A stretch of 64,000 bases of DNA from a virus (lineage: Duplodnaviria > Caudoviricetes): positions 55,964 to 119,963 of IMG/VR virus record IMGVR_UViG_2910903598_000004. One strand, given 5' to 3'. Below the pieces are notes generated by a model. It had not been told where the DNA came from. It did no database searches and saw only the letters and a program-made list of their open reading frames with translations. The position numbers and the translations under genes are program-made. This document shows, piece after piece, positions 48,891 to 62,641 of this stretch. Numbering within the stretch: the stretch's first letter is position 1; every line of letters starts with the position of its first letter.

Positions 48891-48955
48891 TCTGCTACCA
48901 GCAGATTTCGCCTTTGCGAATTATTTCGATGCTTTCTTATTTTTACACAAACTGC
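48891..48955 (-). ncRNA. tracrRNA-like scaffold A (fused to array A)
   Basis: Anti-repeat GCAGTTT-GTG-TAAAAAT, nexus AAGA-AAGCA-TCG, hairpins TTCGC-AAAG-GCGAA and TCTGCT-GGT-AGCAGA. Confidence 0.8.
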
Positions 48956-48964
48956 TTATTTGAC

Positions 48965-49050
48965 CATTGACGATGGTTCTGTTTTACAGTCTTCTAAAAC
49001 GGCAGTAGAGAGCTGGGGTTTGCCGCCTTTCATTGACAATGATTCCGTTT
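48965..49050 (-). CRISPR. Type II-like mini-array A (1 full + 1 partial repeat, one 30-nt spacer)
   Basis: Repeat 48965-49000 GTTTTAGAAGACTGTAAAACAGAACCATCGTCAATG (36 nt); spacer 49001-49030; partial repeat 49031-49050. Confidence 0.8.
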
Positions 49051-49103
49051 CTTTAATCGTATAGACCATTTTTCAGTAATTATACTTACAATCAATAATA
49101 TTC

Positions 49104-50276
49104 TTAGAAAAACCTAAATTTATCCTTTTGATCACTCGGTACCGCATAAATACGTTTGATTTTCTGTCCAATATATAATTTGTCTAAAATATCCGTAATT
49201 TTCTTGCCTTCATCTGTTTTCTCTTCATCTTGACTTTCATGCGTATAAGCAATATCATACTCTGGTTCTGGATTTGTAACATGAAACATTAACATTCTTT
49301 TATCCTTATCAATATAGTTATTTGAAAAATTCATTGGAAATTCGCCAATATATTCTCCAACATAAGATAATGGACGAATATTATCTGGAAGATATATACT
49401 CATATCAGTAATTGTATTGTCATACAGCTGCCATTCTTTTATTTTTCCACTTAATGTTGCCTGATTTTCAAATTCTACAATAATTTTTATGTTCTTATAC
49501 TGACTTATTCTGATAATATTAAGATCATTAATAGCTTCCTGAAATTTTAATCCATTGTTTAGTTCGAAAGCAATGGACCGTAAACAGTCATAGTTAAGAT
49601 TCATTCGTACACTAAAAGCAATCACATTTTCAATTTCATCATAATATTGCTTGTCTAACTTATCTTCCATATAATCACGAATTTCATCTGCTGTTGGATA
49701 TAAAAATCTAAAATGATAATGAAATCTTCCAGGACGATTTATCAAATATTGACTTAAACTTTGAATCTCATTACATGTAATCACAAACAGTTTCTTTCCT
49801 GCACTTACTCCATCAAATAAAGATAACATCTCCGCTTGACAATTATGTTTCTTTTCATCAAAAGTTTTATCGTATTCATCAAACAGTATCATAACTGTTT
49901 GCTCAATTTCTTCAAGAAAGTTTGCAATTCCCTCATGATATTCATTAACCAATATAACAGGTATCCCTTTTTTTCTTGCTTTCAATCCTAAACACTTAGA
50001 AAAAAGTGACTTTCCAATTCCTTTATCTCCACTTAGAATTACTCCAAGATTTCGATTCATCTTATCCATGGAATTCAACACTTTCTTGACTTTATCTAAA
50101 TGCTGACCATAAATTTTTGTTTCTGGAATCTCAAAATCGTGTGCTTCTAGTAAAGAAAAAATTCTTGTTTCTGGATCATAATCCACCCGATAAGTTTTTG
50201 GTGGTAGTTGATCGTACGTGGTAATCGCATTATTAAAAATTCTATATCTTTTACCTGATTCTACAATATGCATCAA
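49104..50276 (-). CDS. AAA+ ATPase
   Basis: LSGDKGIGKS, ILFDEYDK, ITCN, INRPGRF. Confidence 0.85.
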   Translation of the reverse strand: MMHIVESGKRYRIFNNAITTYDQLPPKTYRVDYDPETRIFSLLEAHDFEIPETKIYGQHLDKVKKVLNSMDKMNRNLGVILSGDKGIGKSLFSKCLGLKARKKGIPVILVNEYHEGIANFLEEIEQTVMILFDEYDKTFDEKKHNCQAEMLSLFDGVSAGKKLFVITCNEIQSLSQYLINRPGRFHYHFRFLYPTADEIRDYMEDKLDKQYYDEIENVIAFSVRMNLNYDCLRSIAFELNNGLKFQEAINDLNIIRISQYKNIKIIVEFENQATLSGKIKEWQLYDNTITDMSIYLPDNIRPLSYVGEYIGEFPMNFSNNYIDKDKRMLMFHVTNPEPEYDIAYTHESQDEEKTDEGKKITDILDKLYIGQKIKRIYAVPSDQKDKFRFF

Positions 50277-50467
50277 ACATTCCTCTTTTCTTATGATATT
50301 TTATATTGTTTGCTTTTTGCGATCTTGCAAATCTCGTAACGACGAGCGGTTTCAATATATTTTTACTTCTACTTTTCCTATTTTGATAAAATTATTGAAG
50401 TTATTGTAATATTTTGATACATTTTTTGTCATAAACATTAACGTTTATAAGAGATATCCGAATTAAC

Positions 50468-61871: not shown

Positions 61872-61886
61872 TTTTTCATTCCCTTC

Positions 61887-62294
61887 CTATTCTTTCTTTT
61901 CATCTGGCATCTTGTTACGAAAATCATCCGGAATTCGATTATTATTTGAAATTTTCTTATATATCTTACAAAATTCCGGATCACTCATTGCCATCATATA
62001 GTCATTCATAATCAAATATTGATTGAATCGCTCAAATTCTTCTTTCGTCAGCGAAGTTTTGCTCGCTCTTTCTATCGTATATGGTTGAATCATCCCATCT
62101 TTTACCATGTCTCTTACAAAAGAAATTTTCTGCTCAACTTCTTTATAAGCTTTTGAGTCAAAAGAATCTTTCAACAGCTCTAAATTAGATACTAATTCGT
62201 ACATTCCATTTGCAAGAGCAGTAATTTCACCATAACTCATATGCACAACCGCATAAGAATTTGGATGATTTACATGTAATTCTTTAATATACAT
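61887..62294 (-). CDS. Hypothetical protein; probable paralog of 7719..7985
   Basis: 135 aa with GGGAG RBS. Confidence 0.65.
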   Translation of the reverse strand: MYIKELHVNHPNSYAVVHMSYGEITALANGMYELVSNLELLKDSFDSKAYKEVEQKISFVRDMVKDGMIQPYTIERASKTSLTKEEFERFNQYLIMNDYMMAMSDPEFCKIYKKISNNNRIPDDFRNKMPDEKKE

Positions 62295-62331
62295 AAAGCA
62301 CTCTCCCTTCTCAGCTATTTGAAAATATTTC

Positions 62332-62402
62332 CTGCCACACGGCAGTTCTCGTTTTAACGAGTCTATTCGATTATTCCATTCTTATTTTTACGCACTGTGC
62401 AA
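62332..62402 (-). ncRNA. tracrRNA-like scaffold F
   Basis: TTGCACAGT-GCG-TAAAAAT-AAGA-ATGGAATAA-TCG, hairpins CTCGT-TAAA-ACGAG and CTGCC-GTGT-GGCAG. Confidence 0.8.
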
Positions 62403-62413
62403 AATAATTTGAC

Positions 62414-62641
62414 TATTTAGACATGATCCTATTACACAGTTACAAAACTGAACTCCAAGAATTTTCACGGATATTTTTTATTTAGACATGTTCCTATTAC
62501 ACAGTTACAAAACTCAAATTGACGTTCAGGAAATGCAACAGTACATTTAGGCATGTCCGCGTTACACGGTTACAAAACGCCTTTCTTTTTCAGAAATTTT
62601 ATTTTGTCTTTAGACATATCTCTGTTGTACGGTTACTATTC
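62414..62641 (-). CRISPR. Type II-like mini-array F (4 repeats of increasing degeneracy, 3 spacers)
   Basis: 35-nt repeats 62414-62448 and 62479-62513 GTTTTGTAACTGTGTAATAGGA(T/A)CATGTCTAAATA; 62544-62578; degenerate 62607-62641; spacers 30, 30 and 28 nt. Confidence 0.9.

Follow-up and report, generated by a model that had tools for sequence, protein, structure and literature searches.

The 64-kb window analysed here makes up the final 64 kb of an IMG/VR record of 120 kb (IMGVR_UViG_2910903598_000004, positions 55,964 to 119,963; the full record is referred to below as G000). [quoted passage not shown] The repeats are 36 nt long, start with GUUUUAGA or GUUUUGUA, and number one to four per locus in the window and up to seven in related elements. 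They recur with a period of 65-66 nt and, as in type II guide arrays, are direct repeats between which lie unique spacers whose length is constant (26-30 nt in the window; ~25 nt in cassette E). The terminal repeat is followed by a linker of 7-15 nt that holds a conserved GGUCAAAU-like motif, and then by an anti-repeat complementary to the repeat start. The tail is made up of a lower-stem strand, a UAAG nexus, AUCGA and two hairpins, its conserved block reading GUAAAAAUAAGAA..AUCGAA ahead of the hairpins. An anti-repeat followed by a nexus and 3' hairpins is the arrangement of a guide formed by CRISPR RNA (crRNA) and trans-activating CRISPR RNA (tracrRNA), and guide plus scaffold come to ~140-147 nt. 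All of the tails lack a U-tract, and the next start codon lies 30-60 nt further on, on the same strand; the minus strand carries every sizeable open reading frame (ORF) of the region.

In an Rfam scan, all seven tails exceed the gathering score of the family RF03055 (RAGATH-30; 59.5 bits, model of 59 positions), with 60.6-71.5 bits and E values of 1e-9 to 1e-12 over model positions 1-59. Cassette A (48887-49062, minus strand like all the loci; 71.5 bits) comprises a degenerate repeat (49027-49062), a 26-nt spacer (49001-49026), a terminal 36-nt repeat (48965-49000), linker and anti-repeat (48947-48964) and tail (48889-48946); its minimum free energy fold consists of a repeat:anti-repeat stem and two hairpins, and a start codon lies ~35 nt downstream. 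Cassette B (53078-53305; 68.3 bits) has a repeat remnant, a spacer, a repeat (53225-53260), a 30-nt spacer (53195-53224), the terminal repeat (53159-53194), a palindromic linker, the anti-repeat and the tail (53079-53137), and cassette C (54769-55017; 66.5 bits) likewise has a degenerate repeat, a spacer, a repeat (54916-54951), a spacer (54886-54915), the terminal repeat (54850-54885), linker, anti-repeat and tail (54770-54828). Cassette D (57687-57860; 68.2 bits) has a degenerate repeat, a 30-nt spacer (57804-57833), the terminal repeat (57768-57803), a linker, a 9-bp anti-repeat and a tail (57689-57746) whose lower stem is variant, having U-G and G-U; cassette E (57944-58141; 61.2 bits) has degenerate upstream repeat material, its ~25-nt spacer, a terminal repeat (58023-58058) with a degenerate 5' end (UAUUUAGA), linker, anti-repeat and tail (57946-58003). 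Cassette F (62329-62645; 70.9 bits) has four repeats and three spacers at a 65-66-nt period, the terminal repeat at 62413-62448, linker, anti-repeat and tail (62329-62391). The solo tail (52825-52882; 60.6 bits), a copy of which is also found in relatives, has no recognisable upstream repeat or array and sits directly upstream of a 776-aa ORF. We considered this ORF as a hidden effector and, on the basis of its sequence, rejected it as a Cas9-like protein: it belongs to no Pfam, PHROGs or PADLOC family, has no similarity to Cas9, and matches only its own cluster in the Atlas.

The initial annotation had proposed that repeat and anti-repeat co-vary from locus to locus within a constant fold, and that this reflects selection on RNA structure rather than neutral decay. 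We evaluated covariation in an alignment of 37 distinct cassettes from the window's element and its relatives, using a structure that we specified, with 6 bp in the lower stem, 9 bp in the upper stem and 5 bp in hairpin 1. In this alignment, the rows of which include both paralogues and orthologues, such that cells are not independent events, 92.0% of cells are paired, compared with 36-50% when the partners are slid by 1-3 columns; both sides have changed in 103 cells, compared with 32.6 +/- 6.5 in shuffled alignments, and the covariation score is 0.44, compared with 0.23. None of 500 shuffles reaches the observed percentage paired, number of double-change cells or covariation score; in the numbers of covarying pairs and of pair types, the alignment does not exceed the shuffles. 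Within the specified structure, compensatory changes occur at ten pairs; upper-stem pairs 10-56, 11-55 and 12-54 each have four or five pair types, and covariation extends to each of the five pairs of hairpin 1. Pairs 4 and 5 of the terminal hairpin are also compensated, by C-G/U-A and U-A/C-G/A-U exchanges. RNAalifold returns the same core without an input structure, and the single sequences of cassettes A, B and F fold in the manner of a single-guide RNA (sgRNA), with modest fold z-scores (-1.1 to -1.8). The covariation between repeat and anti-repeat therefore holds when the alignment is extended to homologous cassettes and, because it involves three helices and is accompanied by live spacer turnover (described below), the data support selection on RNA structure over neutral decay. 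The upper stems quoted in the initial annotation are correct with two amendments: the AGUCUGU given for cassette C belongs to an upstream repeat, its terminal repeat reading AGUCUAU with one A.C mismatch, and the terminal repeat of cassette E is degenerate at its 5' end. The five 3' hairpins quoted for their compensatory changes all correspond to the first 3' hairpin of the tail. The further suggestion that repeat divergence keeps the guides orthogonal fares less well. Predicted cross-pairing across all rows averages 7.7 for a cassette's own pair and 6.7 for other pairs; cassettes A and C are set apart, whereas D, E and F pair at 8-9 of 9 positions with each other's anti-repeats, and orthogonality is therefore at most partial.

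RAGATH-30 is an orphan family, for which we found neither a mention nor a function in the literature searched. Its model leaves the first 26 nt unpaired; in the cassettes those bases are the lower-stem strand of the tracrRNA and the nexus. The model spans only the 59-nt tail, whereas the cassettes add an array, a linker and an anti-repeat. Related elements hold 5-15 RAGATH-30 copies each, as determined by pattern and family searches. Matches to the tail pattern in species genomes were rejected as chance, since none of the 16 plausible loci checked contains RAGATH-30. The nearest active Cas9 (43% identity, from a Lachnospiraceae genome; locus L209) has a tracrRNA ~145 nt upstream of the cas9 start codon (L209:1270-1390), the tail of which matches RAGATH-30 weakly, at 27 bits, and has the AAAUAAGAAUUUAU core and the two hairpins in common with it. 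This shared core and hairpin pair support the view that RAGATH-30 is homologous to tracrRNA tails. The L209 tail has an added terminator hairpin, and its lower stem differs from that of the cassettes; a Clostridium type II-A locus (L203) with cas1, cas2 and csn2 has no RAGATH-30-type match. There is a parallel for an orphan motif of this kind proving to be part of a guide RNA: for the sibling motif RAGATH-18, later work established a role as the guide RNA of IS607 TnpB (PMC11061315).

At 97-99% identity, the record is collinear with a relative of 222 kb, G001, over positions 91-206 kb of the latter. G001 ends in host DNA (G001:210000-221898), where the flanking threonyl-tRNA synthetase is 100% identical to that of Anaerostipes hadrus and where tag and Nramp genes are also found, and the SecA encoded in the window is a letter-for-letter copy of one on a 3.49-Mb NCBI contig. 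We therefore treat the window as part of a ~200-kb integrated element, of uncertain type, of the gut bacterium A. hadrus. The element encodes DnaN, DnaX, a topoisomerase, UvrD, SecA/SecY, an McrBC-like pair and a methylase-helicase. We rejected the phage identity implied by the IMG/VR "virus" record, given these replication, secretion and restriction genes, the ending of the record's element in host DNA, and the ending of sister copies at a Tn916-type excisionase and integrase; there are no virion or structural genes among those element proteins that were scanned. A search of the element against a plasmid database gave a sole match, of 60 nt of secA.

Elements that are 97-99% identical carry different spacers. 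In all five arrays that can be compared, shared spacers are distal and variable spacers abut the terminal repeat and tracrRNA; it is thus at the 3' end, next to the tracrRNA, that an array gains spacers. For example, the distal spacer of cassette F is common to relatives and its proximal spacers are unique, the cassette B spacer differs from that in relatives G001 and G003, the cassette C position in relatives holds one or two spacers in nested order, and the cassette D array of G001 has two additional tracrRNA-proximal spacers, one of which aligns over 29/29 positions to a small element described below. In metagenome contigs, the gene spacing around arrays, including that of cassette F, shifts in steps of 65-66 nt. 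Canonical type II-A arrays gain spacers at the leader end, which is the opposite polarity. The GGUCAAAU-like motif lies directly 3' of the terminal repeats (48947-48964, 53138-53158, 54829-54849, 57747-57767 and 62392-62412), at the end where new spacers join; no integrase is encoded near these motif sites.

Spacer searches gave no match inside G000, G001 or G002 and none in GenBank phages, and scans of IMG/VR returned only the arrays themselves. Spacer 2 of cassette F shares 15/17 nt with a spacer of the relative G003, and a degenerate metagenome scan with that shared word led to L200, a contig of 6.5 kb that contains a perfect protospacer (30/30), as well as to a further array aimed at the opposite strand of the same site. 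F spacer 2 overlaps, as a variant allele, the site targeted by two other arrays. L200 (1-6535) is a small integrative element, of ~6 kb, that adjoins a tRNA and encodes an integrase, an FtsK/SpoIIIE-type translocase, a Viral_Rep-type Rep and a helix-turn-helix protein; its relatives (L206, L207 and L208) sit in Anaerostipes DNA, with an Anaerostipes histidine kinase in the flank. Homologues of the Rep are widespread in gut Clostridia, with no match to the protein in IMG/VR, and L200 itself carries another orphan Rfam motif, ssNA-helicase RNA (RF03070, 49 bits). Twelve of 81 distinct spacers, representing 10 protospacers and seven repeat classes, match four representatives of this small-element family in alignments of 27-30 nt. 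Among the sources of the matching spacers are cassettes of elements without cas genes and one cassette that adjoins a Cas9 gene, and both DNA strands are targeted. On the 3' side of the protospacer, an A is found at position 3 in 10 of the 12 cases, at position 4 in all 12 and at position 5 in nine, and a T at position 6 in eight, such that the protospacers share a candidate NNAAAT-like protospacer-adjacent motif (PAM). The use of one PAM across many repeat types favours a single effector.

The cas9 gene expected of a type II locus is missing from the record and is present in sister elements G002, L177 and L204. G002 has the same backbone as the window's element together with a 1312-aa Cas9-family gene (L052:8847-12785) with REC, bridge-helix, HNH_4 and PI domains; one cassette directly follows this gene, another five lie in between a 114-aa gene and those for a UvrD helicase and a glucosaminidase, and both A/C-like and F-like repeat types adjoin it. 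A Cas9-family gene followed within 80-220 nt by a cassette, with further cassettes after it, is found in G002, L177, L204 and ten metagenome contigs (L228-L237), and in the sister elements the single Cas9-family gene is followed by 6-9 cassettes of differing repeat type. In L177 (Cas9 at 10001-13471), the cluster ends at a Tn916-type excisionase and integrase, beyond which lie A. hadrus genes, including a CsoR-like flank gene. No adaptation module (cas1, cas2, csn2/cas4) adjoins the Cas9 gene of L052, L177 or L204. We note that a UvrD/Rep-type helicase is conserved between the cassettes of this cluster (L052:14505-16436; L177:15164-17095) and absent from the more distant L204, and that in all loci seen the Cas9 gene is immediately preceded by genes for a papain-like peptidase that has a lectin domain and for one or two proteins with the Pfam domain ATLF, a metalloprotease fold of the lethal-factor-like kind (L052:6863-8679; L177:8034-9833; L204:3613-4491). 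A role in guiding a transposon, as in CRISPR-associated transposons, was considered and rejected; there is one sub-threshold TniB match 4.8 kb from the G002 Cas9, and no transposase among the scanned ORFs. The proposal of the initial annotation that a single effector reads the RNA structure and nexus thus gains indirect support, from the single tail type, from the one PAM for seven repeat classes, and from the one Cas9-family gene that precedes mixed-repeat cassettes in each sister element. The seventh tail, the identity of the tail with an orphan Rfam family, the lack of an effector in the window and the predicted loss of nuclease activity in the associated Cas9 all go beyond that annotation.

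Aligned to solved Cas9 structures (SpCas9 numbering), the Cas9 of the sister element has the substitutions D10T, E762K and H983A in RuvC and H840Y in HNH; in place of the residues of an active Cas9 it reads T, K, A and D in RuvC and Y and N in HNH. The RuvC-I and RuvC-II substitutions are common to all clade members at 71-89% identity, and four of five of these have the HNH His to Tyr change. Moreover, 16 near-identical cluster representatives (P0003-P0018), of 1151-1159 aa rather than 1312 aa, precisely lack residues ~742-896, which constitute the HNH domain. Since three of the four RuvC residues checked and the catalytic HNH His are lost, and HNH is often missing altogether, the element Cas9 should bind DNA without cutting it. 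In public databases, a member of the cluster, WP_044924278.1, bears the annotation of an ordinary Cas9 endonuclease. Identity to the element Cas9 reaches no more than 43% among the nearest active Cas9 proteins; a protein search found no close relative in species genomes, and neither the examined loci of 401 Lachnospiraceae genomes nor one Clostridium type II-A locus has an active Cas9 with this type of tracrRNA. We found no description of a natural nuclease-dead Cas9 in the literature searched.

We propose that the cassettes are natural single-guide units for a nuclease-dead Cas9 that is used against rival mobile elements, a reading that we consider probable. Each locus would be a self-contained type II guide-RNA cassette in which the newest spacer sits in a natural sgRNA, because the last repeat is joined through the linker to its own anti-repeat and tracrRNA tail; older units of the array would need the same tracrRNA in trans, probably together with RNase III. 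Repeat and anti-repeat would co-vary because the duplex must form for loading, and the tail would stay fixed because one protein reads it. The reader is most likely the WP_044924278-like Cas9 clade encoded directly upstream of the same cassettes in A. hadrus sister elements. The guides would be aimed at small Rep-FtsK-integrase elements of the same genus, beside the NNAAAT-like PAM, and the likely effect would be silencing, or a block of the rival's replication, integration or transfer, in a conflict between mobile elements. What the data show directly is the anatomy of the cassettes, their covariation and RAGATH-30 identity, the turnover of spacers with its polarity, the PAM-flanked matches to the small element, and the association with a Cas9 that has substituted catalytic residues; binding without cleavage, RNA processing and the biological effect are the steps that we infer. 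A bolder version, which we advance tentatively and judge to have slightly less than an even chance of being right, is that a large integrative element runs a natural multiplexed form of CRISPR interference, in which a nuclease-dead, often HNH-less Cas9 is served by up to 15 dispersed RAGATH-30 single-guide cassettes, spacers are inserted at the single-guide position by adaptation machinery borrowed in trans, and small integrative elements that hitch-hike or compete are silenced rather than cut.

Several observations weigh against our proposal. There is no Cas9 (TIGR01865 family or Cas9-protein search) in the 120-kb record, the collinear G001, G003, G004 or G005, and no Cas1 (PF01867) in G000-G004; hence, both would have to act in trans, or the cassettes are idle here. 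Elements with the cas-less cluster type occupy ~4.7 times more collection blocks than Cas9 (8741 versus 1867, a rough measure), so many carriers may be without an effector. Arrays that lack cas genes and keep gaining spacers would have to obtain Cas1-Cas2 in trans, and the entry of new spacers at the 3' end is opposite to the canonical type II-A leader end. The loss of nuclease activity is a prediction from residues, D986 and N863 are retained in the element Cas9, and clade member P0020 keeps the HNH His. None of the window's own spacers has a full protospacer, the sole overlap being the 15/17 nt of F spacer 2 at the frequently targeted site, of which 11 nt are contiguous by blastn-short. Lastly, with no terminator in the tails and the next start codon only 30-60 nt away, these RNAs may also act in cis on the downstream mRNA.

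The lack of an effector in a record whose arrays nonetheless turn over, together with the need for Cas1 and Cas2 from elsewhere during acquisition, could also mean that the cassettes supply guides to a catalytically active Cas9 in trans, encoded by the host or by another element, in a form of cleaving immunity with outsourced arrays. We regard this as unlikely. RAGATH-30 tails were seen with a single Cas9 clade, in which catalytic residues are substituted, and the nearest active relatives are not only distant (at most 43% identity) but also have a different lower stem and a tail match of just 27 bits. A host Cas9 could instead be the victim, if the cassettes were anti-CRISPR decoys that soak it up or redirect it. 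Such RNAs were described in June 2026: viral single-guide RNAs (vsgRNAs) and rAcrIIA1 are shorter than 120 nt and have guides of ~13-14 nt, mostly to the cas9 promoter, together with terminators, a location in anti-CRISPR islands and an inhibitor role (bioRxiv 10.64898/2026.06.01.729453; 10.64898/2026.06.03.729762), and vsgRNAs are defined as compact natural sgRNAs of <120 nt, the truncated guide of which in most cases matches either the cas9 promoter or a tracr-L guide, with anti-CRISPR or Aca neighbours in ~80% of cases (Feussner et al., 2026). The cassettes resemble these RNAs, and the host tracr-L, in being natural fusions in cis of a crRNA-like part with a tracrRNA; they are likewise borne on a mobile element, and no cas9 gene lies on the same contig. 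By contrast, they are ~140-147 nt long, lack terminators, and have spacers of 26-30 nt in place of compact truncated guides; the targets found for spacers of the family lie in a small mobile element, next to a consistent PAM, rather than in the cas9 promoter. They are evolving arrays, and sister elements place them beside a Cas9 gene of their own, albeit a dead one. No anti-CRISPR family was found among the cassette neighbours by Pfam, PHROGs or PADLOC, which are not libraries dedicated to anti-CRISPRs, and no active Cas9 that such decoys would inhibit was found with this tracrRNA type in the loci described above. Given that published vsgRNAs have short guides, terminators and an inhibitor role, the features tested do not fit that class, and we consider a decoy function very unlikely.

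The position of the tails suggests a different alternative, namely that they are chiefly cis-acting RNAs of long co-directional operons, such as processing sites or structures in 5' untranslated regions, and that the arrays are relics. Every tail precedes a start codon at short distance, on the gene strand and without a U-tract; one tail has no array, and RAGATH-30 originally came to light as an orphan motif between genes. A purely cis-acting role leaves unexplained the covariation between repeat and anti-repeat, the turnover of spacers, the PAM-flanked protospacers and the Cas9-family gene to which the cassettes of sister elements are constantly linked. We give this alternative, as the chief function, marginally less credence than the decoys, and note that a dual role is possible. 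Relics of another sort would be expected if the loci were decaying duplicates of one former CRISPR-tracrRNA locus, now functionless, and the degenerate upstream repeats of several cassettes, the damaged terminal repeat of cassette E and the tail that stands alone could be read in that way. Compensatory changes in three helices, seven tails above the gathering threshold and strain-level spacer gain make wholesale decay hardly credible.

The natural sgRNA cassettes that we propose for a nuclease-dead Cas9 share much with type II-A CRISPR-Cas9 systems such as those of Lachnospiraceae (L209) and Clostridium (L203): 36-nt repeats of the GUUUUAGA type, 30-nt spacers, a 3' PAM, an anti-repeat that forms a lower stem, bulge and upper stem, a tail with UAAG nexus and hairpins, and, in the element Cas9, SpCas9-like REC, bridge-helix and PI domains. 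They differ in that the mini-arrays are numerous and scattered among unrelated genes, each one being fused in cis to a tracrRNA of its own; in addition, cas1, cas2 and csn2 are absent, the catalytic residues of Cas9 are substituted or its HNH domain is missing, and spacers enter at the tracrRNA-proximal 3' end. Nuclease-dead RNA-guided DNA binders have been described in the form of TldR (PMC10705468), exapted Cas12f homologues (PMC13472631) and type IV-A systems with DinG (PMC12714560). As in those cases, an RNA-guided protein appears to have lost cleavage, often on mobile elements, and is predicted here to act by binding; furthermore, the UvrD-type helicase inside the Cas9 cluster of G002 and L177 recalls DinG, its role being putative. 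Here, however, the protein is a full-size Cas9 derivative, the arrays are still gaining spacers rather than holding a fixed guide, and the target is a rival mobile element rather than host genes. Mobile elements are also known to carry CRISPR arrays or CRISPR-Cas9 against competitors (reviewed in PMC11656645), including an integrative and conjugative element of Campylobacter (PMC8743540). Those elements likewise have arrays with spacers to other mobile elements, but they use ordinary arrays with an active Cas9 or host machinery, not tracrRNA-fused cassettes or a dead effector.

The genes around the cassettes may form a defence island. Just downstream of cassette A is an McrBC-like pair (43515-48278), which consists of an AAA_5 ATPase matching the PADLOC candidate PDC-M26A and a DUF2357 protein, and between cassettes are an AAA/nSTAND3-like ATPase (49104-50276) and an HD-domain protein (53321-53935). 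A SecA and SecY pair is encoded between cassettes F and E (58270-61871), and DnaN, a DnaX-like clamp loader, a topoisomerase and UvrD at 22348-30681, a housekeeping-like gene load that is unusual for a mobile element. A promoter scan of the window gave sites no commoner than in shuffled sequence, and the terminator-like matches in the window scan are the tail hairpins themselves.

The assignment of RAGATH-30 to a tracrRNA tail gives an orphan Rfam family a concrete function, in parallel to that of RAGATH-18 with TnpB. If our proposal is correct, the cassettes would be natural sgRNAs that work as real guides and not as anti-CRISPR decoys. The conflict between mobile elements should be experimentally tractable, with defined guides, a candidate NNAAAT PAM and defined Rep-FtsK-integrase targets, and the compact Cas9 forms without HNH may interest protein engineers. 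More broadly, in a widespread Cas9 of a cultivable human-gut species that is publicly annotated as an ordinary endonuclease, evolution appears to have reached the design of dCas9, the nuclease-dead form of the enzyme.

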